Shown: one piece after another, positions 40,725 to 56,820 of the stretch
How positions within the stretch are numbered: position 1 is the stretch's first letter
How the letters are laid out: each line of letters opens with the position of its first letter
Source: an uncultured Woeseia sp.
GTDB lineage: Bacteria; Pseudomonadota; Gammaproteobacteria; Steroidobacterales; UBA11654
DNA: 56,820 bases
Assembly: GCA_964416745.1 (NCBI GenBank)
Contig: CAYQEV010000003.1
Location: forward strand, 1 to 56,820
Reading direction: 5' to 3'
Made by a program: the position numbers and the translations under genes
The notes under the pieces: generated by a model
The model's input: the letters and a program-made list of their open reading frames with translations, nothing else
Told to the model about the DNA's origin: nothing
Database searches by the model: none

Positions 40725-42119
40725 ATGCATAGATCCTTTAGAGAAATTGTTAACATCCTTGATAAAAAAGGGAGCCTCATACATATCAAAAAAGAGGTTA
40801 ATCCTAAATTTGAAATGCCAGGAATAATGAAAAAACTAGAGCAGGAAGGTAAGGCGTTTATATTCGAAAACATTAAAGGCTCAAACTATAAAGCAGTTGG
40901 CGGAATATTTACTTCCATGGATCGTTATGGGTTAATTTTTAATGAAGACGCTAGTGAAAGCTTCACATATGATCAAGCCGGTAAAAAAGTTCAACAAGGA
41001 ATATCTAATCCTATTCCTTATATTCAAAATGACACAGGCCCCATAACAGAAAACATATTAACCAATGATGAAATTAATTTATTGGACTTACCTGTGCCTA
41101 CATTTTTTGAGCTAGATACAGGACCATTTATTACAGCAGCAGTAGGTATTTTCAAAAAACCAGGAGGTGAAATTAATGTTGGTTTTTATCGATGCCTGAT
41201 TGTTGACGAGAAACACATATTAATTAATGCTAGCGGCCTGAGCGACCTACGTAAAAGCTATAATTGGCATCGCGAAAACAATAAAGAAATGAAAGTCGCT
41301 ATGGTTTTGGGTGCGCCCCCAGCCTTATTAATGGCTGCTGCTTCAAAATCACCAGAACATATTTCGGAACTGGATGTGGCCGGTGGAATTATAGGGGATG
41401 GGGTTAAAGTAGTGTTGGGCCCTAAAACTGGATTACCTATTCCAGCTGATGCTGAGATGGTCATTGAAACCGTCGTTGATCTCGACAATATGGTGGAAAA
41501 TACGTTGGGTGAGTTTGGTGCACAGTATGGAACTGAAACAGCGCCGATGTGTAAGGTCACATCAATTCTTAAGCGGAACAATGCAATGTTTTATTCATTA
41601 ATGGCTGGCAGAGCCAAGGAACATAACAATTTAGGTTATCTAACTGTTTATGGAATGTCGGAAATGATTAAACAGAAAATTAAAGAGGTTTTTTCATTTG
41701 TTACTGATGTGGTGGTTCATTTTGATACTAAGATAGGCCCACTAATGCATCTTGTTATTGCTATTAAGAAATCATCAGATTTGCAACCGAAAGAGGTTAT
41801 TAATGAAGTGTTTAATATTAACATGGGATTTTTCAATTTATCCTGGATGGCTAAACGGGTAATTATTGTTGATGACGATGTAGACCCATCTAATATGGAT
41901 GATGTTGAATGGGCAACATGGACAAGAATGGGTCGGGCAGAAAAAGTTTATTTATTTTCAGATTTTATTACTTGGGAAATTGATAGAGCAGCATTGCCAG
42001 ACAAAACTTCATTAAGGGTTGGAATAGATGCAACAAAAGACATGGAACAGGTTGATGATTTAGTTAGGCCTGTTGTTCCGGGGATTGATAATATAAATCT
42101 AGATGATTACATTAGTTAA
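40725..42119 (+). CDS. UbiD-family (prFMN-dependent) reversible decarboxylase
   Basis: 464 aa. UbiD-like layout with the acidic motif VENTLGEFGAQYG (compare EGPFGE in characterised members, from memory). No ubiX in the window. Confidence 0.8.
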   Translation: MHRSFREIVNILDKKGSLIHIKKEVNPKFEMPGIMKKLEQEGKAFIFENIKGSNYKAVGGIFTSMDRYGLIFNEDASESFTYDQAGKKVQQGISNPIPYIQNDTGPITENILTNDEINLLDLPVPTFFELDTGPFITAAVGIFKKPGGEINVGFYRCLIVDEKHILINASGLSDLRKSYNWHRENNKEMKVAMVLGAPPALLMAAASKSPEHISELDVAGGIIGDGVKVVLGPKTGLPIPADAEMVIETVVDLDNMVENTLGEFGAQYGTETAPMCKVTSILKRNNAMFYSLMAGRAKEHNNLGYLTVYGMSEMIKQKIKEVFSFVTDVVVHFDTKIGPLMHLVIAIKKSSDLQPKEVINEVFNINMGFFNLSWMAKRVIIVDDDVDPSNMDDVEWATWTRMGRAEKVYLFSDFITWEIDRAALPDKTSLRVGIDATKDMEQVDDLVRPVVPGIDNINLDDYIS

Positions 42120-42140: not shown

Positions 42141-43196
42141 ATGGATCCATATTTAGCGGTAGGACTCCAAACTAAGATCAAGCACGTCACATCTCGCCAA
42201 GAAGTGAGTAGAAACTTAAACCATATTGGCAACATGATAGATATGGTAACTCACATGTGCTCTTTAGAGCTTCCTGTTAGGCTTATTGCTCTAGGGGAGG
42301 GGGCAATTCAGGGTTTTGTTGATGAAATAATGGATTTGGATCAAGCTGACTACGCTAAGAATATGGCAGCCGAGATTCCAGGGTTTGAAACTGATTTCTT
42401 GGGTAAATACGCTAAGAGTAAAAATACTTTTATTATTGGGCAACTAAAAGAAAAATTACCAGATTACCCAGATCGTTTCTTCAATACAGTTTTTATTATT
42501 GATGACAATGGAGATGTTATTTATAAACACCATAAAAACATTGTTGTCTTTGTTGAACACTCGACAACGCCTCACGATGTTTATGATCAATGGATTGAGC
42601 AACACGGAGATAGCCTTGAAGCGTTTTTCCCTGTTGCCAAGACCAAGATTGGCAATATAGCAGGCACGGTTGGTGTAGAGGGTTCTTTTCCAGAATCATT
42701 CAGAGCATTTGCTATGAATGGAGCAGAAATTCTTTATCGAGCGTCATTGCCGGAGCCATGGGTTTCAAGAGAAATCTTTGAGGTTCAAAATCGTTCCAGA
42801 GCAATTGACAATACCTGTTATATGGTTGCACCTAATTCTGGGTCACTGATTATGCCTGGAAACGAAGGCGAGGACCCAACAGTGATTGATGGTGCTCTCG
42901 GTGGTTGCTCCTCAATTATTGATTATAAGGGGACAGTTTTAGCCCATAACCAAATCGTGGGCGACAGTTATGTCGCATCTGAAATTAATATTGATGCACT
43001 TCGATACTATAGAGAAAATGCAAAGTTTCAAAATTGGATTCCCTACTTGAAGACCGAGATTTATAGAAAAATATATGATCAAGAAATATGGCCAAAAAAC
43101 CTACCTCCAATGAATCATGAAGATGCTGGAGAAGTCTTTAAAAAGACAATCAAAAAGCTTATTGAGTCTGGGGTATACACCCCAAGAAATAAGTAA
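42141..43196 (+). CDS. Carbon-nitrogen hydrolase (amidase/nitrilase superfamily) paralogue lacking the nucleophile cysteine
   Basis: 351 aa. Roughly one-third identical by eye to the 45560-46702 protein along its whole length. Glu (ALGEGA) and Lys (YKHHKN) positions are kept, but the nucleophile elbow reads GTVGVEGSFPE where the paralogue has TLICAEGSYPE. 21 nt downstream of the UbiD gene. Confidence 0.75.
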   Translation: MDPYLAVGLQTKIKHVTSRQEVSRNLNHIGNMIDMVTHMCSLELPVRLIALGEGAIQGFVDEIMDLDQADYAKNMAAEIPGFETDFLGKYAKSKNTFIIGQLKEKLPDYPDRFFNTVFIIDDNGDVIYKHHKNIVVFVEHSTTPHDVYDQWIEQHGDSLEAFFPVAKTKIGNIAGTVGVEGSFPESFRAFAMNGAEILYRASLPEPWVSREIFEVQNRSRAIDNTCYMVAPNSGSLIMPGNEGEDPTVIDGALGGCSSIIDYKGTVLAHNQIVGDSYVASEINIDALRYYRENAKFQNWIPYLKTEIYRKIYDQEIWPKNLPPMNHEDAGEVFKKTIKKLIESGVYTPRNK

Positions 43197-43656: not shown

Positions 43657-45543
43657 TTATAACATTAACTGTTCGTTGACTGCTCGATCAGCAGCATCTA
43701 TAGCGCCAATAAGATAAGCGTAAGCCGAGGCATCTGAGTTAGCTATTGAAATACGTCCAATTTGTGCTCGGCCAGCAATGTGCGGCCCATTGCTTGGGCT
43801 GAATTCCACAGGATCAGAATAATCAAGATATTCGTAGGCATAACCATGTGGCCATCGATTAACTGTAATTGCTGCTATGTCTTGCTCTGCATCAAATCCA
43901 CCGTCACGCAGTGCACCACTCATTTGGCTAACAATGTTTTTCTCAAAATCATCAAAACTCATTTCATATAACCTAGTTCTTCCAGCTATACATTGCTCTC
44001 GAGCATTCAGCCCTTTATCCGGGTCTAGGGGTACATGAGTACCATGAATAACAGTCGGCTCGTCTGGATTTTGGGTGAAATTGTAACCTCCCATACTGAC
44101 TGGAAAATCAAGACCAAACGAATGCATTAAACTGGGTTGTGGGATATAGAAACTTCGGTATCCAAGATTTGAGAATGCATTCCAATTCCTAACAGCAACA
44201 CTGATATACACTAACGGCATTTTTGTGGCATAAGCAATGGCTTCCTTCTGTGCATCAGGCACCTCGGGACAAATATCTGGAATAATATTGTTGTAGCATG
44301 CCATGATCACATGGGCTCCTCTCACTCGATATGGGCTTCCATCCTTGATATAAGTAACATCGACTGACTTCTCACTTGGCGTATGCTCTACTTTAACAGC
44401 CGTAGAGTTTAATCTGATACGAACCTTTAATGAGTCCAAATCAAGCCCGGCATAATCAACTCTTGCTTTCACAAGATCTTCCATGGTTGTACCTGAAATA
44501 GCGCTAGGTATTAACTCACGGACAATTGATCGAGCAAACCCTGCATTACCATCTGGAAAATGAAAAATATAAGGCTCATCCCTCTCATAGCTTTGTTCGG
44601 CTATTTTGAGGTTAAGACCCAGTGTTCCAGGCATATCTGATTTATAGGCATCCAAAGCAGATAATGCATCCCACCCTATGCCCCATAGACCTCGAGACAT
44701 ATCTCTGTAGAGCAATACAACCTCTTCAGAAACATTGACGTATTTTCTTAAAAAATCACTATAACTTGTTTGTCTAAGCAGATTAATTTTATCCTCTTGA
44801 GACCCCATCCCTAGGAGGTAATTCTCTGTTTGACTCAGTAATTTAATCAGAGCAGTTTTTGAAGCTTCAGCAATAGGGTAGGCATTAATAAGGTCAATGA
44901 TCTCCTGTTCATTATCTTTTATTTTGGCTCCCAAAATATTATCTGATACATAATCTTTGCCATATTGATCACGACTGAAATACAGACCACGACCTAGTTT
45001 TCGATCTTTGAAATAATTACGATCAAAATAATCATAAAAACGCTCGGTGTGAACCCCTACATCTTTGAGTAGTTTCTTCCCTACAGGAGACCAACTGCTT
45101 GGGTCAGCGATAGATTGACTGCCTCCATAGCCAATCAGTTGCTTGCCATCAACAGTGAACTCATTACGTTTTGCATGACCCCCAAAATCATCATGATTAT
45201 CTAAAATTAATATTCTTGAATTCTTCCCATGACGTTGCTTGTAGAGATACGCTGCCGATAGACCTGAAATACCTCCTCCAACAATCACAAGATCATAATC
45301 ACGATCAGTCTGATCAGTAGGCTCTGTCCAACGTGCACCATTTCTAGCCAGGGCGTGTGCAACTTCAAATGAACCAGGATGACTGCCTCGCATACCGATG
45401 AGTTCAGGTGGATATAATGCATCAGCACTGGATTGATGACTCATGGCGAGTAGTTCAAGAGGTGATAATGCAGTGCCTGCAGTCAAACTCATAGCTACAC
45501 CGTTCATAAAATCACGCCGCGTAATGTTTAACTTTTTAGTCAT
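43657..45543 (-). CDS. Tat-exported FAD-dependent amine oxidoreductase, spermidine-dehydrogenase (SpdH)-like
   Basis: 628 aa. Twin-arginine signal ITRRDFMNGVAMSLTAGTALS, dinucleotide fold YDLVIVGGGISGLSAAY, and size and layout like Pseudomonas SpdH as remembered. Confidence 0.65.
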   Translation of the reverse strand: MTKKLNITRRDFMNGVAMSLTAGTALSPLELLAMSHQSSADALYPPELIGMRGSHPGSFEVAHALARNGARWTEPTDQTDRDYDLVIVGGGISGLSAAYLYKQRHGKNSRILILDNHDDFGGHAKRNEFTVDGKQLIGYGGSQSIADPSSWSPVGKKLLKDVGVHTERFYDYFDRNYFKDRKLGRGLYFSRDQYGKDYVSDNILGAKIKDNEQEIIDLINAYPIAEASKTALIKLLSQTENYLLGMGSQEDKINLLRQTSYSDFLRKYVNVSEEVVLLYRDMSRGLWGIGWDALSALDAYKSDMPGTLGLNLKIAEQSYERDEPYIFHFPDGNAGFARSIVRELIPSAISGTTMEDLVKARVDYAGLDLDSLKVRIRLNSTAVKVEHTPSEKSVDVTYIKDGSPYRVRGAHVIMACYNNIIPDICPEVPDAQKEAIAYATKMPLVYISVAVRNWNAFSNLGYRSFYIPQPSLMHSFGLDFPVSMGGYNFTQNPDEPTVIHGTHVPLDPDKGLNAREQCIAGRTRLYEMSFDDFEKNIVSQMSGALRDGGFDAEQDIAAITVNRWPHGYAYEYLDYSDPVEFSPSNGPHIAGRAQIGRISIANSDASAYAYLIGAIDAADRAVNEQLML

Positions 45544-45559
45544 TCTCTAAATCTGACCA

Positions 45560-46702
45560 TTAACTAATATCTTTTGCTTTATCGATACGGCTTTGAACTG
45601 ATTCACTAACTTCATAAGGTTCCCAGTTATCTGGGGGCGAATACACCCCCATTTTGACCATTTTGTTCACTTGATGTTTAACTAATTCCAATTGATCTTC
45701 TTCTGTAAATGGCGGTTCGTCCATACATAAATTCCTAGGGTAAATACCTCCTTTTGCCATCATTGCATCGTAGATCACTTTATATTCCTCAACTCTCATA
45801 TCTTTTGCTAAATTTTGCCACTGCCCCCTTACGCGAAAATCTCTCAAACCATCAATATTAATGATGCCGCTAACAAGAGCCTCGCCTCCACCTAAATATT
45901 CAGAAATAATTTGTCCACGATAGTCAATAATTTGGCTACGACCATTGCTCATTTTAAAGTCATCCATTCCGGGCATATATATGCCTCCGATATTTGGAGC
46001 AAGCACATAACATGTATTAAAAATAGCATGTGATTGATTTTGAATTTGGTTCATTTTATTACCCATCCATGGTTCAGGGTATTGAGATCGATATATAACT
46101 TCAGCTCCATTTAAAGCTAACCCCCTGGCAGCTTCTGGGTAACTACCCTCAGCACAAATCAATGTTCCAATATTACCGATTTCAGTTTTAGCAACTGGAT
46201 AAAGAACATCAAGAAGTTTTTCTGGATCATCACCATATTTCTCTAAATACAGGTTCCATATATCACTTGGGGCAGTATTTGTTTCTCTTTGATAAAAAGA
46301 CGTTTTTATATGTTGGTGTATCACGTCACCATTAGGGTCAATCATAAAGGCTATATTGAATATTCTGTCTTTCATCAAATCAGGAGCTTTGGCGATCATT
46401 TGGGCAATAAGATAAATATTAAACTCTTTACATATAGCCCCCAGAAATTCTGTTTCTTTACCTGGAATTTCTGGCACCACTTCTCTAGAAATACGAATAT
46501 GCTCATCACCTCCGCCTAGACACCAACCACCTATTCCGCCCTCAGAAACCGAAACTAATCTTACAGGTAGGTCTAGGCTGCAGTTCCATACTGCATAACC
46601 AATGCTGGTTTGAAGACGTTCAAGGTCTTTCCAATAGTCATCAATGCTTGTCGCCATATGCGACTCATTTTGTATACCCACAGCGGTATATTGAAGTGTC
46701 AT
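45560..46702 (-). CDS. Carbon-nitrogen hydrolase (aliphatic amidase-like), catalytic triad intact
   Basis: 380 aa. Glu in SVSEGG, Lys in HQHIKT, Cys in GTLICAEGSYPE (compare AmiE IICDDGNYPE, from memory). C-terminal ~60-aa extension. Confidence 0.78.
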   Translation of the reverse strand: MTLQYTAVGIQNESHMATSIDDYWKDLERLQTSIGYAVWNCSLDLPVRLVSVSEGGIGGWCLGGGDEHIRISREVVPEIPGKETEFLGAICKEFNIYLIAQMIAKAPDLMKDRIFNIAFMIDPNGDVIHQHIKTSFYQRETNTAPSDIWNLYLEKYGDDPEKLLDVLYPVAKTEIGNIGTLICAEGSYPEAARGLALNGAEVIYRSQYPEPWMGNKMNQIQNQSHAIFNTCYVLAPNIGGIYMPGMDDFKMSNGRSQIIDYRGQIISEYLGGGEALVSGIINIDGLRDFRVRGQWQNLAKDMRVEEYKVIYDAMMAKGGIYPRNLCMDEPPFTEEDQLELVKHQVNKMVKMGVYSPPDNWEPYEVSESVQSRIDKAKDIS

Positions 46703-46818: not shown

Positions 46819-48087
46819 ATGAATCAATCACCAACAAATCAAAACACTCAGAAACAAGAGATATTATCCTTCTCAGAGATACCAGCGAGCGCATATAAAA
46901 TTTTCTTTATTTGTTTGATTGGCGTAACTTTTGCCAATTTAGATCATTCTATTTTTATTTTGGTAAGTGAAAAATTTCAAGAAGATTTTGGATGGGATCT
47001 AACAGATGTGGGTTGGTATGTAGCGATTACATTTTTTATATCCGGAATACTTTGTACCCAAGTTGGAGTGCTTACTGATCGTATTGGTAGAAAAAAATCA
47101 TTATTAATTTCAACATTTTTGACTCCTATTTTTGTTGGTTTTCTAGCTATTGCTCCTAATACCTTATCAGTATTAATTGCTAGAACTCTTGGGTTTACTG
47201 CAGCAGGAGCGCAGTCTCCTATTACACTGACCACGGTTACAGAGTCTTCTCCACCAAGATTTAGAGGTTTGTTTACAGGTATTTTACAAATTGGTTTTCC
47301 GTTAGGTTGGTTCTTTGCTTCAATATTGGTGGTCTTTATGATTGATAATTTAGGCATTAATTGGAGATATACATTTCTCTTAGCCTTTTTATTTGTGCCT
47401 TATGGTTGGGTTATTCATAAGTATTTACCAGAATCAAAAGTATGGCTTGAGGCTCAAAATAAGAAAACTGAGAATCAGCCAAAGCCCAGTACTATGGTTT
47501 TATTTTCTGACAAGTATAGAAAAAAATCACTGCTCTTATTTTCAGGCCAATTTCTTTATGCTTTTGCTTATGGAAGCACATTAATGTTGGTTCTTTATTT
47601 TACACAAGCAAGGAATTGGGAGATTGTAGATGCTATCAAGATAGTTGGGCTTTCATATGGCATAGGGTCTTTTGGTTATATTGCTGCTGCAATCGTGGGA
47701 GAGTTCTTATTAATAAGAAGAAATACTATTATTTTATGGGCATTGCTTGGAGGCCTAGCTTTTATTTATTTAATATGGATGGCTGATTCTTGGAATAAGG
47801 TGCTGATTAGTTATGGATTAATGACTTTGTTTTTTTATGGTGCTTATGCGGTCATGGCAACCTTTATTGCTGAAAATTTCCCTGCAGAAGTTAGAGCAAC
47901 AGGAGCTAGTTTTTGTGGAACATTAGCTATTAATTTAGGCTTCGGTTTGGGACCTTTAGCTATTACATATGCAGCAACTGATTATGGCTGGAATATGGGA
48001 TACACAATAGTAGGAATCATACCAATAATTGCTGCGGCTCTTATTTTTCTATTCTTGAAGCCCGTACCTAGAGAAGATGTGTTTTAA
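46819..48087 (+). CDS. MFS transporter (organic acid/metabolite:H+ symporter-like)
   Basis: 422 aa, 12 TM, MFS motif A GVLTDRIGRKKSLL. Confidence 0.85.
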   Translation: MNQSPTNQNTQKQEILSFSEIPASAYKIFFICLIGVTFANLDHSIFILVSEKFQEDFGWDLTDVGWYVAITFFISGILCTQVGVLTDRIGRKKSLLISTFLTPIFVGFLAIAPNTLSVLIARTLGFTAAGAQSPITLTTVTESSPPRFRGLFTGILQIGFPLGWFFASILVVFMIDNLGINWRYTFLLAFLFVPYGWVIHKYLPESKVWLEAQNKKTENQPKPSTMVLFSDKYRKKSLLLFSGQFLYAFAYGSTLMLVLYFTQARNWEIVDAIKIVGLSYGIGSFGYIAAAIVGEFLLIRRNTIILWALLGGLAFIYLIWMADSWNKVLISYGLMTLFFYGAYAVMATFIAENFPAEVRATGASFCGTLAINLGFGLGPLAITYAATDYGWNMGYTIVGIIPIIAAALIFLFLKPVPREDVF

Positions 48088-48130: not shown

Positions 48131-49582
48131 TCAATTTGCTGGTCTAAGTGGTTTAATATGCAGCTCCCAATCAGCATGGTCATCTGGCCCTTGGGGTCCG
48201 ATCATGCCCTCAGCTGACTTTAGTAACATCTCTGGGTAATATATTTCACCACCTTTAATCACTAATTTGATATTCCGTGTAACCTTAATATCTTCAAATG
48301 GATTACCCTTGATAACGAGGACATCAGCCAGTTTTCCAGGTTCTATGGAGCCAAGTTTGTCTGCAATACCAAGAGCGCTTGCACCATTAATTGTTGCTGC
48401 TTTTAGTACTGCAATGTTTGGTAAACCTGCATGTACCATTGCCAAGAGCTCTCGATGAAATGCAAACCCAGGCAATAAAGTTGTATAGACAGGCTCATCG
48501 GTACCCACAATCAGGAGATTCTCACCGCCAGATTCATAAAGCCTGTTCAGTTCAAGCACGCGTTGTGCATATTCGATCACGTCTGATTCTGGCAGTGGCT
48601 CACCCCGTTTCTCAAGTAAAGTTTGTGCGTAGGGGGTGAAGTATTTTGCTTCATTCGTCCAAATCATATCTGCACCAAGTTCTTTTCGTAGGTTAACTCC
48701 ACCGTACATCTGCAGGTTGGCGTCATAATACACCTGGTATTGTAGAATCAGATCAATCATTTGCTCCATATCAGCACTGTCTTGACCGCCGCTACCCAAT
48801 GTAATCTGATGCTCCAGACGATCCAAACCCATCAAGATCGCATCTCTTGGGTGCACATCGTATTCCCATTCGTAATTGGCCAAATGCCCTGTTGTTGTCA
48901 TACCGTGTTTATGTGCTTGCTCAATTACAATTTTGGTTTCACCGGGAGTTGCTTGTTTAATTTTGATGCTGATAACACCCCGTGCAGCCCATTTATCCAC
49001 TTCAGCTCGCATTTCCTCTTCTGTAATGTCATTTGGCCAAGCAGAGCAATTATCTGCCGCAGTTTTAACGCTATATTCGCATCTAAATCCACCAAAATAA
49101 GGGCCTGAAGCGAAAAGCCTCGGACCGATTGCTTTATCACTATCTATTAGATCTCGCTGTCTAAGGACACGCTCAGGATAGTATTCACCTGCTGACCAGG
49201 TTGACGTCACTCCGTTTGCTAAGAAAATGATGCCGTTATTGACAACTTCTTCCACACGACCTACATCGACGAGATCAAAATTGTAGTGTGCATGCAGATC
49301 AATCATGCCAGGTAGAATTGTTTCTGACTCGGTCAGGTCTATTACGTTAGCTCCTGAAAGATTTCCCCCTTGTATATTTGCATCAATTTCAACAATTTTC
49401 CCCTCACGAATCACAATACCTTTGTTGAGTCTTCGTGTGTCGCTGATGCCATCGAACAACCAACCACCGCGAATCACGATTTCTTCTGAAGGTGGTTCTG
49501 ACCATTGTGCATATGAAGCACAAGATAGAAATAAAAGAATGAGAGTTGCTTTATTTAATAAACGGCTAATTGATAAGTGCAC
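48131..49582 (-). CDS. Secreted metal-dependent amidohydrolase (PF01979-type)
   Basis: The track ORF starts at 49657 inside the upstream gene. The GTG at 49582, 7 nt after the upstream stop, gives (M)HLSISRLLNKATLILLFLSCASYA/QW, a plausible Sec signal. HxH metal motif in LPGMIDLHAHY. Confidence 0.82.
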   Translation of the reverse strand: MHLSISRLLNKATLILLFLSCASYAQWSEPPSEEIVIRGGWLFDGISDTRRLNKGIVIREGKIVEIDANIQGGNLSGANVIDLTESETILPGMIDLHAHYNFDLVDVGRVEEVVNNGIIFLANGVTSTWSAGEYYPERVLRQRDLIDSDKAIGPRLFASGPYFGGFRCEYSVKTAADNCSAWPNDITEEEMRAEVDKWAARGVISIKIKQATPGETKIVIEQAHKHGMTTTGHLANYEWEYDVHPRDAILMGLDRLEHQITLGSGGQDSADMEQMIDLILQYQVYYDANLQMYGGVNLRKELGADMIWTNEAKYFTPYAQTLLEKRGEPLPESDVIEYAQRVLELNRLYESGGENLLIVGTDEPVYTTLLPGFAFHRELLAMVHAGLPNIAVLKAATINGASALGIADKLGSIEPGKLADVLVIKGNPFEDIKVTRNIKLVIKGGEIYYPEMLLKSAEGMIGPQGPDDHADWELHIKPLRPAN

Positions 49583-49589
49583 TATCTTC

Positions 49590-52352
49590 TTAGGTCTCAA
49601 TATATCTCTCAAAATCACAAGTGTAATCATGAAAAGTATGGTTGGGCTCATAGGCAAAAGGCTTCCATCCTAGATGTTCATAATCTCCCACTAACGAAGT
49701 GGGTTTAATTAAACCACCAGTTTGAACAACAGCGCTGAAGTTTTGTCTATTCCTAAACATCATAGGGTCCCAACCATGATACATATACATCATATTGGGC
49801 CCCATGGCAGAGGTCACATGAGCTTGTGCTATAAAAGAACCCGCTATACTAAACACTTTAACTAAGTCACCATCACTAACACCCTTGTTTTGTGCGTCAT
49901 CAGGGTTAACATAGACATCAGGCTCACCTCTCTGAAGGCTTAGCAGAAAACTGTCGTCTCTCCACATACTATGTATTCCATGACGAGCATGACCCATGAG
50001 CATTTTCATTGGGTAACCCTCATTGACCAAGGGATCTTTATGACGTGGTAGAACCTCATCAAATTCAAAAAACCAATCATGATCAATATAAAATTGCTGT
50101 CGATGAGTGAGCGTTTTATACCCAACTTTATGGTTAACGCTTTCCCAGATCTCTGAGTAATAAGGGGACTCTTTACTATGAACTGTTGTTTCAGAGCCTT
50201 TATTTCTTGAAAAACCCTTCTCAGCGAGCTCATCATAACTTATTTTTTGTATACCGCTTGAGTTGTTAAGAAGAAATTCAATAACATCCTTGACTGAACG
50301 AATTGAGCCATCACTAGTGTAGTCTTTATGGAAGTTCTTAAAATCTCGTTTAAAAGGAACGCCAACCACATTATCATCAATCGGCTTGATATCTCTTTCT
50401 ATTGCTCTTTGAGCAATTGCTTTTGATAATTTTTCATAAGCCGTCCAGTCATCTACCGACTCCCCAAGTGGTTCAACCGCCTTATCAATTACTTGCATAT
50501 AAGGAGTTCTAGGCTCTAAATGAAAATCATGTCGTTCATAATGGTGTGCAATAGGTAGAACATAATCAGAATACATTGCAGTTGTGCCCATATCAGTTGC
50601 AAAGGTAACAATTGTTTCTAATTTGCCAAATGCATTTTCTCTCCAATGTTGACCTGATGAACGCCAACTGGCCGCGTTAGTGCCTGAGAACATGCCCATT
50701 TTCCAGGGGACTTTTGAATAGTCAGGAAACCAACCCTTATCTGTTGATTCTTGAAAGTATCGGTCATACTCCTCCGCCAATTCTTCGCCATAAACCTCTT
50801 TATTTAGTTCTTTCATGTTCCCATGGACATAATCCCATCTTGAGAGAGTAGCAACTCTAAAGGCAGCTATAGGGTTTTTCATGGCAAAAGGAAAAACAGC
50901 ATCATCTTTTGCTAGGTTAGTAATGGTGAGGCCGCCCCCTTCTTTACCAGTATTACCAGTAATGCATAATAATAAAAAGAAAGCTCTTTGGAGCAAATCC
51001 CCATGTAAATACTTGGAGGCTCTATAACCTGCATAAATCATGCCGGGTTTTGCCTCTGCAAATTTTCTTGCTACTTCTCTTATTACCTCAGCATTAATGC
51101 CAGTAATATCTTGAGCCATTTCTGGAGTATGTTCCGAGGCTCTTTGTTTAGTGAGCTCAAATACAGTGGTAACAGTTACAGGACCATCTTTAGTTTCAAT
51201 AACCCACTCACCTTCCAATGCCGGATCAATTTCACCAAGATCAATAGAGGGCATTGGTGGTATTAAATGTTCAGGGGTGCCTGGAGGTGGAGGCGGAGGT
51301 GTTCCTGTCCCAGGAGCAGCTATAAAACTATCAGTGTTGTTATCCCATAAATAAAACAAATTATCTCTTGTTTCTGGGCTATCCAGGATGTCGGTTTCTC
51401 TTATGTATTTATAATTATCTTTTCTTACAAGAAAAGGGAGATCCGATTGTTCCTTTATGTATTTTACATCATAGGTTTTATCATCCAGTATGGTTTTCAC
51501 CATTGCCATTGCTAAAGCAATATCACTGCCTGGATTGGGGTTTAACCATTTACTTGCATGCATTGCTGTGGCATTAAAATCAGGAGAAATTGAAATAACT
51601 TCTGTTCCATTATATCTTGCTTCCCAAAAGAAATGAGCGTCAGGAATACGAGTCACTGCAGGGTTACAGAACCATATCAGACAACATTTAGACTTATAGA
51701 TTTCTGCCATGGTATTACCCAGCGTTACATGCCCTAAGGTAATTTGTGCTCCAGAAAATAAATCACCAACTCCTGCGAAGGCTTCAGGCATTTGAACCCC
51801 ACTAATATTGGCAAATCTAAGTAAGCTCGCATAAGAAGCCCTTTTCATTACCATTTGTGTGCCTAGTCCGCAGGTGATCGATTCAGGCCCATCTTCAAGA
51901 TTATGATCTATAAATTTATCTGCCACTTCTAGCATCGCTTGGTCCCACGAAATTCTTTCCCATTTGCCTTCGCCTCGCTCACCAATACGCTTTAAGGGGT
52001 ACAAGATTCTTTGCTTGCCATACATATACCTTGAATGACTTAATCCCTTTTGACAGCCTCTCGGTCCATAGTCCGGGGCATCACTTGATGCACCATACTC
52101 TCCTTGCTGTTCCTCTCTCCAAACAACGCCATTCTTTACAAAAACATTGAAAGCACATTGTCCTGTACAGTTGGTGCCATGTGTGGAGTGAGTGACACTA
52201 TCCCATGTCCATTTTTTTCGAGCCAAGTCTTCCCATGCTCTATAAGGTGTTGATGCTTGCCCAAGAATTGAGGAAGAGTAGTTAAGCGTTAAACTTGAAA
52301 AAGTTGTTCCAAGTAAAAAATTTCTTCTGTTAGTTTTTATGTTGGAGTCCAT
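49590..52352 (-). CDS. Tat-exported molybdopterin oxidoreductase, type II DMSO-reductase family (NarG/EbdA/DdhA-like catalytic subunit)
   Basis: 920 aa. Twin-arginine signal TNRRNFLLGTTFSS. FS0 cluster motif H-x3-C-x3-C-x33-C in THGTNCTGQCAF..GPRGCQKG. Candidate Mo-ligand Asp in AFAGVGDLFSG. Hexaproline tract GTGTPPPPPPGTPEH encoded at 51282-51299. Confidence 0.8.
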   Translation of the reverse strand: MDSNIKTNRRNFLLGTTFSSLTLNYSSSILGQASTPYRAWEDLARKKWTWDSVTHSTHGTNCTGQCAFNVFVKNGVVWREEQQGEYGASSDAPDYGPRGCQKGLSHSRYMYGKQRILYPLKRIGERGEGKWERISWDQAMLEVADKFIDHNLEDGPESITCGLGTQMVMKRASYASLLRFANISGVQMPEAFAGVGDLFSGAQITLGHVTLGNTMAEIYKSKCCLIWFCNPAVTRIPDAHFFWEARYNGTEVISISPDFNATAMHASKWLNPNPGSDIALAMAMVKTILDDKTYDVKYIKEQSDLPFLVRKDNYKYIRETDILDSPETRDNLFYLWDNNTDSFIAAPGTGTPPPPPPGTPEHLIPPMPSIDLGEIDPALEGEWVIETKDGPVTVTTVFELTKQRASEHTPEMAQDITGINAEVIREVARKFAEAKPGMIYAGYRASKYLHGDLLQRAFFLLLCITGNTGKEGGGLTITNLAKDDAVFPFAMKNPIAAFRVATLSRWDYVHGNMKELNKEVYGEELAEEYDRYFQESTDKGWFPDYSKVPWKMGMFSGTNAASWRSSGQHWRENAFGKLETIVTFATDMGTTAMYSDYVLPIAHHYERHDFHLEPRTPYMQVIDKAVEPLGESVDDWTAYEKLSKAIAQRAIERDIKPIDDNVVGVPFKRDFKNFHKDYTSDGSIRSVKDVIEFLLNNSSGIQKISYDELAEKGFSRNKGSETTVHSKESPYYSEIWESVNHKVGYKTLTHRQQFYIDHDWFFEFDEVLPRHKDPLVNEGYPMKMLMGHARHGIHSMWRDDSFLLSLQRGEPDVYVNPDDAQNKGVSDGDLVKVFSIAGSFIAQAHVTSAMGPNMMYMYHGWDPMMFRNRQNFSAVVQTGGLIKPTSLVGDYEHLGWKPFAYEPNHTFHDYTCDFERYIET

Positions 52353-52378
52353 AGAATAAATGTATCATAAACTTTTCT

Positions 52379-53023
52379 CTAAGCGTTATGTTGTCCTGGC
52401 AATACAAGAACTTTACCACTCGCTTGACCAATAGCAAATTCGACTAGATTCATTCGATCATTACCGAAAAATATTTGGTTTTCAACAACCATTGTGGGGC
52501 TACCATAACCACCTTTATCTATAAGTTCATTAGTGTTCTGTAATATGATGTCATGATTTTTTTCACTTTCAATAGTCAATCTAAAGTTGTCTATATCCAT
52601 ATCTAATTGTTTGGCAATCCCAATTAGAATCTCACTATCAGCAATATCAGCCATGTCACTAAAAAATGCTTTAAACACTTTTGCGCTGTATTCAGCAATG
52701 GTGTTTTCAGTTATTGCAGCTAAAGCACCCCTAGATGCTTTAAGGGACACGCTGTGATCTAAATTTTTATGTTCTTTAATATCAAGACTGCAGTAAGATG
52801 CCCAATCTTGTAGGTCTTTTGTACGATAATCAGCTACATAGTCAGGTGTAGTTTGTGTCGGCTTATTCAGTAGTTCCTTAATTATATCTAGGTTAATTGG
52901 CTTCCATTCAATGATTGACGCGGTTCTAGTTGCCGTTTGTATAAGTCGCTTAAAACCTAAGTATGTCCAAGGGCAACTATAGTCAAAATAAAACTTAACG
53001 GTGATTTTTTTTTCGCTCATCAA
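52379..53023 (-). CDS. 2-hydroxychromene-2-carboxylate isomerase / kappa-GST (DsbA-like) family protein
   Basis: 214 aa. Single-Cys thioredoxin-fold motif FDYSCPWTYLGF and C-terminal SPTMVVENQIFFGNDRM, typical of the HCCA isomerase family. Confidence 0.75.
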   Translation of the reverse strand: MMSEKKITVKFYFDYSCPWTYLGFKRLIQTATRTASIIEWKPINLDIIKELLNKPTQTTPDYVADYRTKDLQDWASYCSLDIKEHKNLDHSVSLKASRGALAAITENTIAEYSAKVFKAFFSDMADIADSEILIGIAKQLDMDIDNFRLTIESEKNHDIILQNTNELIDKGGYGSPTMVVENQIFFGNDRMNLVEFAIGQASGKVLVLPGQHNA

Positions 53024-54582
53024 GAGTCCTTTCGTAAGGTTGTTTTTAGAACTTTACCATTAGCATTTCTAGGAATTGAGTCTATAAATTCGATAATTTT
53101 TGGCGTTTTAATTTTAGAAATATTCTGTTCACAAAATGCAAGTACTTCTTCCGATTTTAGTGCATTAGGATTATGGGTAACAATAAATGCCTTTAAAGAT
53201 TCCCCCCATTTTTCATCTGGAACTCCAATAACTGCAACATCTTGTATATTGGGGTGGTTATATAAAACATCTTCTATTTCTCTTGGGTAAATATTCACCC
53301 CACCTGAAATCACCATATCTTTTTTTCGATCAACGATATACAAGTAACCGTCTTCATCTTGTTTAGCCATATCACCCACTGTTAACCATCCATCAACTAA
53401 GGCTTCTTTTGTGTCATTAGGCCTTTTCCAATAACCATTAAATAGATAAGGACTCGTAGAGAACAATTCACCGACCTCATTTGGTTCACAGATATTTCCT
53501 GACTCTGTAAGGGTTTTAATTTCTGTGCAAGGAAACGCTTGCCCCACACATTGTAACTTTTTGAGTTGATCATCAGGCCTTAAATTAGAGATAATCCCTC
53601 CCTCTGTTGACCCATAGGTTTCATGAAGTAGGCCTGCACCGAAGTGTTCAATAATTTGTTCTTTTACCTGTTGGGGCAGAGCTGCAGCATTAGAAATGAT
53701 TGATTTAAGTTGATGAGATTTCGCATTATTAAGAATAGATTGCTCAAGACTAAGAATGCCATGGAAATGTGTTGGCACTCCAAAAAACCCGGTAATATTG
53801 TCATTTTTCATTGTTTTTAAAACAACCTCTGGGTCAAAAGAATCCATTATTTCTGCATAACCACCAAAGAAGATAGGAGCTAAAGAGAAAATCATACCGG
53901 CTCCATGACACATGGGTGCAATAGCTAGAAAACGGTCATCAGGAGAGTAACAACCATACTCAACCGCCATTCCAAATAAAGTTAGGATTCTTGAGCGATG
54001 TGGCACCAGAACCCCTTTAGGTTTTCCAGTTGTTCCTGAGGTGTAAGGCATGGTGAACACATCCCATTCCATAACAACCGGACTTTCTTTGAGAGGTTTG
54101 CTGATATTAATCCAATCCTCAAGGTCGCTTTCAATCACAATAATTTTTTCAACTGTTGAGAAAACAACATTTTCTAGAGCCATATACGATGCCTGGTCCA
54201 TAAACAGGATCTTAGCTTCAGCATCATCACATATTGCCTTAATTTCCTTGTCAGATAATTTGGGGTTCACTGTAGCTATGGGTATACCAGCTTGAGAGGC
54301 CCCTAAGACTATCTCCATATATTCAATAGAATTACTAGCGACTATAGCAACATGGCCTTCAGAGGGGTTTAAATGATGCAGTAACCCAGAAGAGATCCTA
54401 TCCATTCGTTGGACCAAATCCTTATAGGTTCTTTTTTTGTTTCCATGTTTATAGGCAGTTTTACTTGGGTTCCTCGACATTGCGGAACGAATACCTTCGG
54501 GTATTGATAGGTGTCTATAGGTATTAGGTAATTGAATGTTTGATTCCACTCTATTTATCCAAGTTGAATACTTGAATCGCAT
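53020..54582 (-). CDS. AMP-dependent acyl-CoA synthetase/ligase
   Basis: 520 aa. YTSGTTGKPKGV, YGSTEGG, GDMAKQDEDGYLYIVDRKKDMVISGGVNIYPREIE. 4-nt overlap (ATGA) with the downstream gene and 32-nt overlap with the upstream gene. Confidence 0.9.
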   Translation of the reverse strand: MRFKYSTWINRVESNIQLPNTYRHLSIPEGIRSAMSRNPSKTAYKHGNKKRTYKDLVQRMDRISSGLLHHLNPSEGHVAIVASNSIEYMEIVLGASQAGIPIATVNPKLSDKEIKAICDDAEAKILFMDQASYMALENVVFSTVEKIIVIESDLEDWINISKPLKESPVVMEWDVFTMPYTSGTTGKPKGVLVPHRSRILTLFGMAVEYGCYSPDDRFLAIAPMCHGAGMIFSLAPIFFGGYAEIMDSFDPEVVLKTMKNDNITGFFGVPTHFHGILSLEQSILNNAKSHQLKSIISNAAALPQQVKEQIIEHFGAGLLHETYGSTEGGIISNLRPDDQLKKLQCVGQAFPCTEIKTLTESGNICEPNEVGELFSTSPYLFNGYWKRPNDTKEALVDGWLTVGDMAKQDEDGYLYIVDRKKDMVISGGVNIYPREIEDVLYNHPNIQDVAVIGVPDEKWGESLKAFIVTHNPNALKSEEVLAFCEQNISKIKTPKIIEFIDSIPRNANGKVLKTTLRKDS

Positions 54583-55408
54583 TCTCTCGGAGAACTAGTT
54601 TTTTAGATGAATCTTTAAAATTTAGATTATTAAATTCATCAACTGCTCTTATCGGATCGATAACAGGCCAGTCAGTTCCAAACATGACTTTATGTTTTCC
54701 ATATGAATTAGCATAATGAACAAAGGATTCCGGCCAATATTTAGGTGCATAAGCATCGCCAGCCGTATAAATATTCTCATGTTTCCAGCACATCGATATC
54801 ATTTCTTCAGTCCAAGGAATACCAATATGTATACCAATAAGCTTTAACTCTGGGAAATCAATGGCTACTTGATCCAAATATATTGGTTTGCCAACACTGG
54901 GAAGTCTTCTATTTTTTGAATAAATTAAATTATGTCCAACTTGCATCATGATGGGTATTCCAAGTTCACAACATTTTGCATAATAAGGGTAATACTTCCG
55001 GTGATTTGGTGGTAACTCACACCAATGAGGGTATAGGTGAGCACCAACAAAACCATATTCTTTAACTGCGGCTTCTAAATCATTTAACCCTTCCATACCC
55101 CTAAATGGATCTACACCAGCCAATCCAGAAAATCTGTCTGGGTTTTGACGGCAAACATCGTAGACTCTTTCATAAGGTATCTCAAAAGATTCAGGAACTT
55201 TGATATCACCAGCCCTGACAGCAATTAATAATGACCTTTCAATACCAGCTTGATCCATTTTCTTAATATAATCAGGGATCGTAACACCACCCCTCATCTC
55301 TTCTGGCATTCTTACTTGTTTTTTGAAATCTTCGTCCAGGCCTGTTTGTCCAAGCTCCACTTCCTGTGGAGTAAAAAGATTAACCACAATGTCGATTATG
55401 CCACTCAT
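54551..55408 (-). CDS. Amidohydrolase_2 (PF04909; ACMSD/LigI-like metal-dependent hydrolase/decarboxylase) family protein
   Basis: 285 aa. N-terminal IIDIVVNLFT, IMMQVGH, IGIHIGIPW, and C-terminal FGTDWP aspartate motif. Confidence 0.78.
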   Translation of the reverse strand: MSGIIDIVVNLFTPQEVELGQTGLDEDFKKQVRMPEEMRGGVTIPDYIKKMDQAGIERSLLIAVRAGDIKVPESFEIPYERVYDVCRQNPDRFSGLAGVDPFRGMEGLNDLEAAVKEYGFVGAHLYPHWCELPPNHRKYYPYYAKCCELGIPIMMQVGHNLIYSKNRRLPSVGKPIYLDQVAIDFPELKLIGIHIGIPWTEEMISMCWKHENIYTAGDAYAPKYWPESFVHYANSYGKHKVMFGTDWPVIDPIRAVDEFNNLNFKDSSKKLVLRENAIQVFNLDK

Positions 55409-55444
55409 CAGCTTTACTTTATTATGAGGTTAATAACCTAGAGA

Positions 55445-56350
55445 TTATTGACCATCTAAATCCCATGGCCCTGTTGATTTAGACCTAACTGGAATTCCAG
55501 CCATTACTGGTGCTTGAGTTTCTGGATCATAGTTAACAGCATCACCTTTGACAATAACTTCTGAATTAAGAGTAACCCAGTTAATTAGAGCTCCATCTAG
55601 CCTAAAGATCCAACTTGCTCCCATTTCTTCACCCGTAATAAAATGGCCATGCTTCACTTTTGCTGGCCTGAAAAAATAAGTCCCAGGTGTGAAACGTCCA
55701 AAATTATAATCAAGATGCCCAGTTAAAGTATAAGCTTCCTCAAAAATGGGATGATGTATGAGTCTATCATCTGTCCATCCTGGTGGCGCCCATCCAAGCA
55801 TAGTAATAAATCCTTTTTCATTCTGGTCCTCGGGAGACGGATCATGGTAGAGAATTTTGAGTTGTAAAAAACGCTGTGTATCACCTTCATAGATATTATC
55901 CATCCAATCCATTTTTGTGGAATCGCAAACAGTTAATTTACCAGGCTCTTCTGAGGCAGTGTTGCCCCCTTCAGGAATAAAATCACTCTTATCTGTTTCA
56001 GAAACTGAAAAGCCCCAATCACCATACTCTCTAAAAATAAGAACTTCAGCACCCTTATCAACACTAATGGCAGGAACTTTCAAACCAGCCGGTGCTCGCC
56101 AATACATTCCCGGACCAAAAATTTGGTCTCCCATTTTTACTTTACCTTCTAAGACAAACCATTCTGTGTCAGCTTCATGATAACCAGCAGGACGATCCCA
56201 TTCAGTTTCAAAATATAGTTTTGTTGAACAAGATCCATCTTCTTCATCATAAGAGAGGTTTCTTTGCATTACTCTTCCTGTGCCTGCGTGAAGTTCAGCA
56301 GGGTGCCAACAAAGGTCACTTTGTTGTATTAGTTCTACATGAGGTCTCAT
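55445..56350 (-). CDS. Bicupin protein, second barrel ChrR-like (cupin_7-like); function unknown
   Basis: 301 aa. Two cupin-like cores: HEADTEWFVLEGKVKMGDQIFGPGMYWRAPAG and HHPIFEEAYTLTGHLDYNFGRFTPGTYFFRPAKVKHG. First gene of the minus-strand operon. Confidence 0.6.
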   Translation of the reverse strand: MRPHVELIQQSDLCWHPAELHAGTGRVMQRNLSYDEEDGSCSTKLYFETEWDRPAGYHEADTEWFVLEGKVKMGDQIFGPGMYWRAPAGLKVPAISVDKGAEVLIFREYGDWGFSVSETDKSDFIPEGGNTASEEPGKLTVCDSTKMDWMDNIYEGDTQRFLQLKILYHDPSPEDQNEKGFITMLGWAPPGWTDDRLIHHPIFEEAYTLTGHLDYNFGRFTPGTYFFRPAKVKHGHFITGEEMGASWIFRLDGALINWVTLNSEVIVKGDAVNYDPETQAPVMAGIPVRSKSTGPWDLDGQ

Positions 56351-56473: not shown

Positions 56474-56749
56474 ATGTCTGAAATAAGACTTTCATGGTCT
56501 GGCACTAATGTTACTGTGACGGAAGAATATTTGGATGAAACCCGTGTTTCAATCAACATGGAGCAGAGTAGAGCTTTTAGAGACTGGCGAGTTCCAAGAG
56601 CAATAGAGTTAGCACAAAGAAATCTAGAAGCCTTAGAGGCTGACAATGCTTCAGAAGAAATACAAGCTACTTTAGCCATGTACATAGGAGAACTATATAT
56701 TTGGCAAGAGGACGGTGAGTTAGTCGAGCCGGAAGTTAAAGCAAGTTAA
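56474..56749 (+). CDS. Hypothetical small acidic protein
   Basis: 91 aa. Strong RBS AAGGAGAGG 4 nt before the ATG. No recognisable motif. Divergent from the operon. Confidence 0.55.
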   Translation: MSEIRLSWSGTNVTVTEEYLDETRVSINMEQSRAFRDWRVPRAIELAQRNLEALEADNASEEIQATLAMYIGELYIWQEDGELVEPEVKAS

Positions 56750-56770: not shown

Positions 56771-56820
56771 ATGGCTGAGTATGAGATATGGAAATTCTTG
56801 CACATTTGTATGTTTGTGTT
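56771..56820 (+). CDS. Start of an ORF running off the window (MAEYEIWKFLHICMFV..), possibly a membrane protein
   Basis: ATG at 56771, 21 nt after the previous stop. Only 16 codons are visible. Confidence 0.3.
   Translation, partial: MAEYEIWKFLHICMFV

Follow-up and report, generated by a model that had tools for sequence, protein, structure and literature searches.

An operon conserved among uncultured bacteria encodes a Tat-exported, type II DMSO reductase-like molybdoenzyme subunit together with a CoA ligase and an atypical amidohydrolase

What might an exported molybdoenzyme do in an operon that also encodes a coenzyme A (CoA) ligase and other predicted cytoplasmic enzymes? The question is raised by six minus-strand genes at positions 48131-56350 of a 56,820-nt stretch of contig CAYQEV010000003.1 from an uncultured Woeseia sp., called the window hereafter. 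In order, they code for a bicupin (gene 1, 55445-56350; Pfam DUF4437, Cupin_7 and Cupin_2), an Amidohydro_2 protein (gene 2, AH2, PF04909; 54551-55408), an adenosine monophosphate (AMP)-forming acyl-CoA ligase of the class I adenylate-forming enzymes (gene 3, 53020-54582; AMP-binding and AMP-binding_C), a DsbA-fold protein of the 2-hydroxychromene-2-carboxylate (HCCA) isomerase/kappa glutathione S-transferase (GST) type (gene 4, 52379-53023; DSBA), an alpha subunit of the molybdenum-bis(pyranopterin guanine dinucleotide) (Mo-bisPGD) type, with a signal for twin-arginine translocation (Tat) (gene 5, 49590-52352; Molybdopterin and Molydop_binding), and an Amidohydro_1 metallo-hydrolase with a Sec or lipoprotein signal (gene 6, AH1; 48131-49582). 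The coordinates agree with those of a first-pass annotation, which had regarded the six genes as an operon that fits no known catabolic pathway. We report that genes 1 to 5 form a conserved unit. Our tentative proposal, for which we see somewhat less than an even chance, is a catabolic operon for the periplasmic, water-dependent oxidation of a nitrogen-containing or heteroaromatic organic acid or its precursor, followed by uptake, CoA activation and hydrolytic processing.

With the alpha subunit as query, 310 relatives were found in species-representative genomes, the best 80 loci of which were analysed; the operon-type counts given below are drawn from these 80. All are in metagenome-assembled genomes (MAGs) or single-cell genomes, and those whose alpha is 95-97% identical to that of the window are labelled Woeseia or Gammaproteobacteria. 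Operon-type loci, called type A, were assigned by tblastn with the window proteins, and the denominators are the loci with enough upstream sequence. In 46 of the 80 loci, the genes upstream of the alpha relative on its strand are those of the window: the ligase gene is there in 45 of 45, the AH2 gene in 43 of 43, the DsbA-like gene in 43 of 46 and the bicupin gene in 33 of 35. The complete five-gene core (genes 1 to 5) was found in 37 loci, in marine, soil, lake and wastewater MAGs. In 25 of these 37, alpha is less than 65% identical to that of the window (55-61%) and the flanking genes are unrelated. As the five-gene order is kept with an alpha only 55-61% identical, the juxtaposition is under selection. 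Thus, the gene order is conserved among (meta)genomes and the operon status predicted from the first pass is borne out by distant genomes.

Conservation is uneven along the core. In the distant loci, AH2 is 72-78% identical, the bicupin 59-70%, the ligase 57-66%, alpha 55-61% and the DsbA-like protein 26-40%, making AH2 the most conserved protein of the operon. The median intergenic gaps across loci are 50, 8, 1 and 23 nt. The AH2 protein occurs in identical form on 136 contigs, and in ocean metagenomes some of the clusters formed around these alphas at 90% identity comprise 400-800 sequences. The operon is thus abundant in ocean metagenomes, and among the best 80 of the 310 loci, it was found only in uncultured lineages. 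A 1237-residue gene call of the Joint Genome Institute, P0072, joins AMP-binding domains to a molybdoenzyme. A frameshift or an error of gene calling across the ligase gene, the DsbA-like gene and alpha is the probable origin of this fusion, which independently mirrors the gene order of the operon.

Within the window, the junctions are 36 nt between genes 1 and 2, 26 nt between genes 4 and 5 and, given a GTG start of gene 6 at 49582, 7 nt between genes 5 and 6, all as first annotated; the open frame of gene 6 extends back to a TTG at 49657. Two junctions needed revision. The overlap of 32 nt described for AH2 and the ligase holds only with the first ATG of the ligase (54582), while a GTG at 54549 gives a 1-nt gap. 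The ligase call of the closest relative is 10 residues shorter and starts beyond the AH2 stop, and the ligase of the window may start at GTG 54549 instead of ATG 54582. Genes 3 and 4 do overlap by 4 nt, but the letters are TTGA (within cTTGATGAgc) and not ATGA as described. An ATG of gene 4 at 53020, with AAGGA 8 nt upstream, is the likely start, and its use leads to a 1-nt overlap (TGATG). An AGGGAA ribosome-binding site lies 5' of the bicupin gene. Consensus promoter and terminator scans gave nothing beyond the expectation from shuffled sequence, and no Rfam element, molybdenum cofactor riboswitches included, was found in an Rfam scan. Direct reading of the sequences agrees with the earlier prediction of two products with export signals, alpha and the gene 6 protein, and four without.

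As judged from its sequence, alpha is a divergent member of the type II dimethyl sulfoxide (DMSO) reductase alpha subunits. It falls in TIGR03479, the NCBIfam model of this group, with 877.4 bits, which is below the cut-off of 984.75; its match to the Fe4S4 Pfam domain is likewise sub-threshold (19.4 versus 22.7 bits), and the EbdA equivalog NF042978 gives a partial alignment with 444 bits against a cut-off of 2000. Among solved structures, PcrA of perchlorate reductase comes first (4ydd; 545 bits, 35% identity over the full length), followed by EbdA of ethylbenzene dehydrogenase (429 bits) and NarG (259 bits), with acetylene hydratase (2e7z) as a distant match at 91 bits. The best matches on annotated plasmids are haloarchaeal NarG and the chlorate reductase ClrA, at around 35% identity. 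The ligands of the FS0 [4Fe-4S] cluster, H58/C62/C66/C100 (H-x3-C-x3-C...C), and the Mo ligand D197, aligned with D170 of PcrA (...YGD...), are invariant in 48 operon-type alphas.

Type II DMSO reductases consist of alpha and beta or of alpha, beta and gamma subunits and have a NarJ/TorD-type chaperone, and all the characterised members that we know of are alpha-beta(-gamma) complexes. The real oddity of the locus, which escaped the first-pass annotation, is that its molybdoenzyme is a type II alpha with no beta, gamma and delta partners. No genes for a beta subunit (four Fe-S clusters), a gamma subunit (haem b) or a NarJ/TorD-type chaperone, and none for a cytochrome c or other CxxCH protein, were found in the 56.8-kb window. 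Direct tblastn searches detected neither beta nor chaperone within 10 kb of alpha in 45 of 47 operon-type loci; the other two, L073 and L078, keep beta just downstream of alpha. Alpha thus fails both the complex-level definition of type II enzymes and the curated cut-offs.

To place these alphas among their relatives, the open reading frames (ORFs) of the loci were clustered and the alphas were arranged in a neighbour-joining tree, which led to three context types. Type A is the bicupin/AH2/ligase/DsbA-like/alpha operon. Type B comprises MoeA, alpha, a NarJ-like chaperone, beta, a 650-residue fusion of a major facilitator superfamily (MFS) protein with cytochrome c, a second MFS protein, an isochorismatase-type hydrolase and a PuuE-like hydrolase. 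In type C, a CN_hydrolase gene directly upstream is followed by alpha and beta, with a cytochrome b nearby. Type A alphas form two groups, one of them sister to type C, and both of them together with type C lie across the midpoint root from type B. The type B fusion (L059 10001-19000, L061, L088), which is encoded directly 3' of alpha, chaperone and beta, carries its cytochrome c domain (CGFCHG) at the C-terminus. It resembles an electron acceptor that is anchored in the membrane and linked to a transporter, and we know of no description of such a fusion.

Could alpha have dispensed with its partners by giving up redox chemistry? It might be a hydratase or hydrolase working without a redox partner, like the tungsten enzyme acetylene hydratase, a monomeric member of the superfamily that has kept its FS0 cluster with no electron transfer. 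This idea would explain the missing beta, gamma and delta subunits. In its favour, 45 of the 47 loci have neither beta nor chaperone within 10 kb of alpha, and cytochrome c genes are scarce, with none in the window and one next to alpha in only six operon-type loci. We nonetheless consider it improbable. Acetylene hydratase is Cys-ligated and only distantly related to alpha, and two operon-type loci retain beta. Moreover, operon-type alphas are as conserved as the beta-linked paralogues: mean per-site entropy is 0.93 in both type A and types B and C with no fixed differences, and the Mo-ligand segment PEAF[A/S]GVGDL is common to both sets. The FS0 region of type A alphas is, if anything, more conserved than that of types B and C. 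A relaxation or divergence of the operon-type alphas was rejected on the grounds of the equal entropy and the lack of fixed differences. Type A alphas are thus not degenerating, which argues that alpha is still a redox enzyme with a partner bound at FS0.

Several candidates may be considered for this partner. The operon type and the alpha-NarJ-beta type occur together in six marine genomes (CACDKD01, PBDY01, CACJRN01, CALMWC01, JAQWSZ01 and DTSX01), with the single-cell genomes AG-365-L08 and AG-447-O13 among these carriers of both types. A small cytochrome c (family f41) adjoins alpha in six operon-type loci. Candidate partners are therefore the type B beta and chaperone acting in trans and, in other lineages, the adjacent cytochrome c. 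More speculatively, a six-helix membrane protein encoded upstream of the operon, described below, might play this part.

The kinship of alpha raises the question of whether it works in the opposite redox direction. It might be a periplasmic respiratory or detoxifying reductase of oxyanions or of S- or N-oxides (perchlorate, chlorate, selenate, nitrate or DMSO type), with a regulatory or accidental linkage to the other genes. Its membership of the TIGR03479 subfamily fits this explanation, and so does the fact that its closest characterised relatives, PcrA, ClrA and haloarchaeal NarG, are all around 35% identical to it. However, the aromatic gate of PcrA, which is formed by F164, Y165 and W461, is not kept in alpha, where EAFAGVGD aligns with TFYDWYGD of PcrA and the W461 region is gapped. 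There is no cld gene and no beta, gamma or quinol-oxidising subunit nearby. The same five-gene order across 25 distant genomes with different flanks favours a single function, and CN-hydrolases accompany every context type of the alpha clade. We give a reductase a small chance only.

The location of alpha can be questioned as well. Its N-terminus, MDSNIKTNRRNFLLGTTFSSLTLNYSSSILGQA/ST (a slash marks the predicted cleavage site), holds a canonical Tat motif, in keeping with the exported molybdoenzyme of the first-pass annotation. The signal is made of NRRNFLLG (RR9-10), a hydrophobic stretch and GQA/S, and the mature part aligns with mature PcrA from residue ~35. Alternatively, alpha might stay in the cytoplasm and hydroxylate the CoA thioester made by the ligase, its twin-arginine peptide serving for chaperone binding only, like the vestigial motif of NarG. 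Phenylacetyl-CoA:acceptor oxidoreductase is a Mo-bisPGD enzyme that acts on a CoA ester. All the enzymes of the core would then share a compartment, and the part played by the ligase would be evident. Only the small DsbA-like gene lies between the ligase gene and alpha in all loci. Nevertheless, we regard it as very unlikely. The Tat signal is complete and canonical in all 48 operon-type sequences, with an S/T-R-R-x-F-L-x-G motif, a hydrophobic stretch and an AxA-type site, and the RR pair is invariant in 48 of 48, whereas NarG-type remnants have lost it; in addition, no NarJ-like chaperone is encoded alongside. As for a chance juxtaposition of six genes in a compact genome, the promoter- and terminator-like sites do not exceed the shuffled expectation and the sixth gene is indeed a recent insertion, but the order of genes 1 to 5 in 37 marine, soil, lake and wastewater loci with unrelated flanks refutes it for these genes and leaves it next to no probability overall.

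If alpha is a periplasmic oxidising enzyme, what would the cytoplasmic genes do? The Amidohydro_2 assignment of the second gene was confirmed by Pfam, although the match begins only at profile position 63. Decarboxylases and hydratases of this family (ACMSD, LigW, PicC and LigJ type) bind their metal by an HxH motif at the end of strand 1, a later His and an Asp. At the place that corresponds to HxH by sequence, AH2 reads IIDIVVNLF, with an invariant IDIVVN, a feature overlooked in the first-pass annotation; V8 and N10 do not vary among 37 orthologues or the cultured homologues. The later His residues and GTDWP are retained. The best PDB matches are BB4693 (3irs), an uncharacterised Bordetella protein, and the hydratase LigJ. 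AH2 is thus predicted to belong to an atypical subfamily of TIM-barrel hydrolases, hydratases or decarboxylases. The missing HxH weakens the case for a PicC-type decarboxylase, which we had considered.

The acyl-CoA ligase annotation stands, with 241 bits for PF00501 and 75 bits for PF13193. All adenylation motifs are conserved, including YTSGTTGKPKG (the TSGTTGxPKG motif), and CoA is the predicted acceptor. The best NCBIfam subfamily is PRK06187 (423 bits, below its cut-off of 476) and the best PDB match is feruloyl-CoA synthetase (247 bits). The gene 4 product is, as first proposed, like HCCA isomerase and kappa GST (PF01323, 111 bits): its best solved homologue is the HCCA isomerase 2imd, then GST kappa. 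It aligns end to end with 2imd (48 bits), with FYFDYSCPWTYL against FYFDFLSPFSYL. What had been missed is an invariant Cys17-Pro18 at the position where HCCA isomerase has Ser-Pro. The first gene does code for a bicupin, but the stretch most like ChrR falls within the first barrel (residues 8-97), not within the second as described. The C-terminal barrel has a metal-type motif, HHPxFEE...H, that is conserved in 31 orthologues. The sole PDB relative of the bicupin is 2qdr, of no known function. A function as dimethylsulfoniopropionate (DMSP) lyase was considered and dropped, as there is no match to the DMSP_lyase Pfam model.

AH2 proteins of the same subfamily (48-53% identity, IDxVVN) are also found in cultured Betaproteobacteria and Alphaproteobacteria: Comamonas endophytica, Variovorax sp. 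PBL-E5/SRS16 and Roseomonas haemaphysalidis carry them on megaplasmids or chromids. Their gene follows that of an adenylate-forming enzyme with a 4-nt overlap in Comamonas and Variovorax and is divergent from it in Roseomonas; the ligases of these clusters are only 25-27% identical to that of the operon. The Comamonas and Variovorax clusters include an acyl-CoA dehydrogenase and an alpha/beta hydrolase. Isochorismatase-type hydrolases in the Comamonas and Roseomonas clusters, and two PuuE-like (polysaccharide-deacetylase-type) hydrolases in that of Comamonas, are related to those in operon-type loci, and carboxylate-binding proteins of the tripartite tricarboxylate transporter (TTT) type are encoded near AH2 in all three genera. 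The Comamonas endophytica cluster lies on plasmid NZ_CP106882.1 (L089 8980-15903), L090 and L091 are further cultured loci, and IclR regulators are present. The cultured clusters thus share with the operon the AH2 motif and the AMP-binding neighbour, whereas the molybdoenzyme, the bicupin and the DsbA-like gene are missing from them, and they are likewise uncharacterised. AH2 and a ligase therefore make up a portable module of two genes for the catabolism of carboxylic acids or amides, for which these three genera offer a tractable handle.

Gene 6 does not share the history of the core. From its GTG start, the product begins with VHLSISRLLNKATLILLFLSCASYA/Q, a Sec or lipoprotein-like signal, consistent with the Sec signal first annotated; it belongs to Amidohydro_1 by Pfam, has an intact HxH (DLHAH), and its best NCBIfam match, a weak one, is Xaa-Pro dipeptidase. 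The first-pass annotation had counted it as a member of the unit, but it was found in L004, L005 and L009 alone among the 46 operon-type loci, plus in L001, and is absent from relatives as close as 88%. Its GC content is 43% versus 38% for the window. Gene 6 is thus a recent, lineage-specific addition to the operon, and with 3 of 46 loci, the deamidation in the periplasm that it had suggested is lineage-specific at best. Other lineages have in sixth position a bilin-reductase-like gene (seven loci), a beta subunit gene (two loci) or nothing. The bilin-reductase-like gene codes for a protein of the ferredoxin-dependent bilin reductase family (PF05996, 68 bits) and lies 12 nt 3' of alpha in L084 (12769-13461). 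It is also found in L021, L039, L041, L042, L058 and L064, and its hosts are MAGs of non-photosynthetic Gammaproteobacteria.

The genes flanking the operon provide clues to the substrate. Convergent with it is the gene of an MFS transporter (46819-48087, plus strand), whose nearest Pfam/NCBIfam subfamily is that of aromatic-acid/H+ symporters. Of the 46 operon-type loci, 17 have it within 10 kb, versus 2 of the 34 others, and it is a candidate importer of the substrate or the product. Next come CN_hydrolase A (45560-46702, minus strand), a nitrilase-superfamily amidase with a distant resemblance to aliphatic amidase or formamidase, which was found in 25 of 46 operon-type loci and is around 71% identical in distant ones, and a UbiD-family decarboxylase (40725-42119, plus strand) followed by CN_hydrolase B (42141-43196, plus strand), a pair that lies near 18-19 of the 46. 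The two CN-hydrolases, UbiD and the MFS transporter are far more frequent within 10 kb of alpha at type A loci than at loci of other types. The best PDB match of the UbiD protein is 6h6v/6h6x, which we take to be the furandicarboxylate decarboxylase HmfF, and the next is the indole-3-carboxylate decarboxylase AnInD. Relatives from soil and wastewater add TonB receptors, a Tat-signal Amidohydro_2 protein and BiuH/RutB-like and PuuE-like hydrolases, and TonB receptor genes lie upstream of the operon in many loci. As C-N hydrolases recur with all three context types of the alpha clade, they are the best clue to an amide or ring nitrogen in the substrate.

Divergent from the operon in the window are a 91-residue acidic ORF (56474-56749, plus strand) and a gene for a six-helix membrane protein of 224 residues, of which the window holds the first 16 codons (56771-56818, plus strand; full length in L001, 4866-5540). 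The acidic ORF is conserved in the marine lineage only; a single copy was compared, that of L001, and is 83% identical. In 32 loci the membrane protein gene, often present twice, lies upstream of the operon in divergent orientation, and residues H13, W20, G22 and D24 of its product are invariant. Neither Pfam nor NCBIfam nor PDB profiles match this product, and a haem-binding partner resembling HemJ or MsrQ is a speculation.

At the far end of the block that comprises the UbiD and CN-hydrolase genes and the operon, the window has a phage-type integrase gene (38134-39402, plus strand) with a GC content of 29% versus 38% for the window. An integrase is found at the same position in relatives L008-L017, and the block from ~38 kb to the end of the window may be an old genomic island; a tRNA scan detected no tRNA genes in the window that could mark its boundary. 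Between the two CN-hydrolase genes lies a gene for a 628-residue amine-oxidase-like flavin adenine dinucleotide (FAD) protein with a twin-arginine signal of its own, TRRDFMNG (43657-45543, minus strand), which is present only in the closest relatives and in L017. Just beyond the integrase gene are those of a Rieske ring-hydroxylating oxygenase alpha subunit (36185-37201, minus strand), an NmrA-like reductase (35319-36179, minus strand) and a short-chain dehydrogenase/reductase (37278-38030, plus strand); aromatic catabolism genes are therefore also found on the other side of the integrase. The rest of the window outside the operon block consists of housekeeping genes.

How might these parts work together? 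From the gene content, export signals, cofactor motifs, synteny and missing local beta and delta, we infer a redox direction, an order of steps, an electron partner and a class of substrate. Alpha would acquire Mo-bisPGD and its FS0 cluster while folding in the cytoplasm, and the Tat system would export it. In the periplasm, it would oxidise or hydroxylate a small nitrogen-containing or heteroaromatic organic acid, or a precursor, with water as the source of oxygen; ethylbenzene and dimethyl sulfide dehydrogenases set the precedent for such a reaction. Electrons from FS0 would go to a partner encoded outside the operon, in the marine lineage most likely the beta subunit that is encoded at the paralogous alpha-delta-beta locus and matures with the help of the NarJ-like chaperone, and in other lineages possibly the adjacent c-type cytochrome. 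The oxidised product would then be imported by the neighbouring MFS transporter and converted by the ligase to its CoA thioester, to be processed further by AH2, a thiol-dependent enzyme of the DsbA fold and the bicupin. The nearby CN-hydrolases may remove the amide nitrogen, and the UbiD enzyme may decarboxylate. The first-pass annotation had envisaged the breakdown of an aromatic, heterocyclic or amide-containing acid, hydroxylated or deamidated in the periplasm and ring-processed in the cytoplasm. The genetic context fits a heterocyclic or amide-containing acid (CN-hydrolases, UbiD, MFS, BiuH/RutB-like and PuuE-like proteins), but periplasmic deamidation would concern a few lineages at best and the processing of an aromatic ring is purely conjectural.

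A number of facts weigh against the proposed catabolic role. No core protein has a characterised close homologue. CoA chemistry is cytoplasmic while alpha is periplasmic, and the link between them is synteny only. AH2 is devoid of the usual metal ligands. By its scores, alpha is nearer to oxyanion reductases and enzymes of the dimethyl sulfide dehydrogenase type than to hydrocarbon hydroxylases (PcrA 545 versus EbdA 429 bits). Finally, two complete operon-type genomes of 3.49 Mb each have no second close alpha among the best 80 loci and no beta among the 120 best beta matches, in a search that was not exhaustive.

A bolder version of the proposal, which we consider unlikely in its entirety, would see the operon as a widespread oxygen-independent entry step. 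An alpha that has shed its partners, and that borrows a paralogue's beta or docks a cytochrome or membrane protein, would hydroxylate a heterocyclic acid of the pyrrole, furan, pyridine or ureide type in the periplasm. This would feed a CoA-dependent ring opening by AH2, the Cys-type kappa-GST and the DUF4437 bicupin, followed by the action of nitrilase-superfamily amidases. The bilin-reductase-like gene in seven loci and the TonB receptors would even allow a substrate derived from tetrapyrroles or bilins.

In line with the first impression that no known catabolic pathway fits the combination, we found no characterised cluster, equivalog model, close solved homologue or paper that accounts for it. 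None of the core proteins has an equivalog-level NCBIfam match, the known clusters (Hmf, Nic/Pic, Ebd/Cmd and gentisate) are not orthologous, and the PDB relatives are distant. No description of the cluster was found in the literature searched, including the review PMC10100899. If our proposal is right, the operon would represent a new class of substrates and a new subunit arrangement for the type II DMSO reductase group. The locus provides a first context for DUF4437 and for the Amidohydro_2 subfamily without the metal motif. It points to a route for the turnover of nitrogen-containing dissolved organic matter in Woeseia-like and related Gammaproteobacteria, through an operon that, among the 80 loci, is confined to uncultured lineages. 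It is also a clean test case of a complex iron-sulfur molybdoenzyme working without locally encoded partners.

Among known systems, the closest to alpha are the PcrAB (perchlorate), ClrABC (chlorate) and SerABC (selenate) reductases and the DdhABC (dimethyl sulfide) and EbdABC (ethylbenzene) dehydrogenases, whose alpha subunits likewise have a Tat signal, a His/Cys3 FS0 site and an Asp Mo ligand, and align over the full length. They differ from the operon in that beta, gamma and delta are missing from the latter, and none of these systems includes genes for a CoA ligase, a hydrolase, a GST-like protein or a cupin. The type B and type C paralogues are closer still, at 56-61% identity, with the same motifs and the same association with C-N hydrolases. 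However, their loci do have beta, to which type B adds the chaperone, MoeA and the membrane cytochrome c fusion, and they lack the bicupin, AH2, ligase and DsbA-like genes.

The gene 4 product shares its DsbA-like fold family and an N-terminal FYFD..xP motif with the HCCA isomerase NahD and kappa GST, but their catalytic Ser is replaced by an invariant Cys, and gene 4 orthologues are only 26-40% identical. A Cys at this place is associated, in other GST classes, with thiol transfer or with glutathione lyase activity. At the level of pathways, the Hmf route for furoate and hydroxymethylfurfural and the Nic/Pic routes for nicotinate and picolinate use a water-dependent Mo hydroxylase, a CoA ligase (Hmf), UbiD, the Amidohydro_2 member PicC and formate- or ammonia-releasing amidases. 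Their logic resembles that proposed here. Their hydroxylases, however, are cytoplasmic members of the xanthine oxidase family in contrast with the Tat-exported bisPGD enzyme of the operon, no operon protein is closely related to the enzymes of the Hmf, Nic or Pic routes, and AH2 has no PicC-type metal motif. As to the missing partners, YnfE and YnfF of E. coli share one beta subunit, YnfG, encoded in the same operon, NapA uses the cytochrome c NapB, and MsrP uses the haem membrane protein MsrQ. These systems provide precedents for a shared beta or for a cytochrome or haem partner, an arrangement that we propose for the operon by analogy only.

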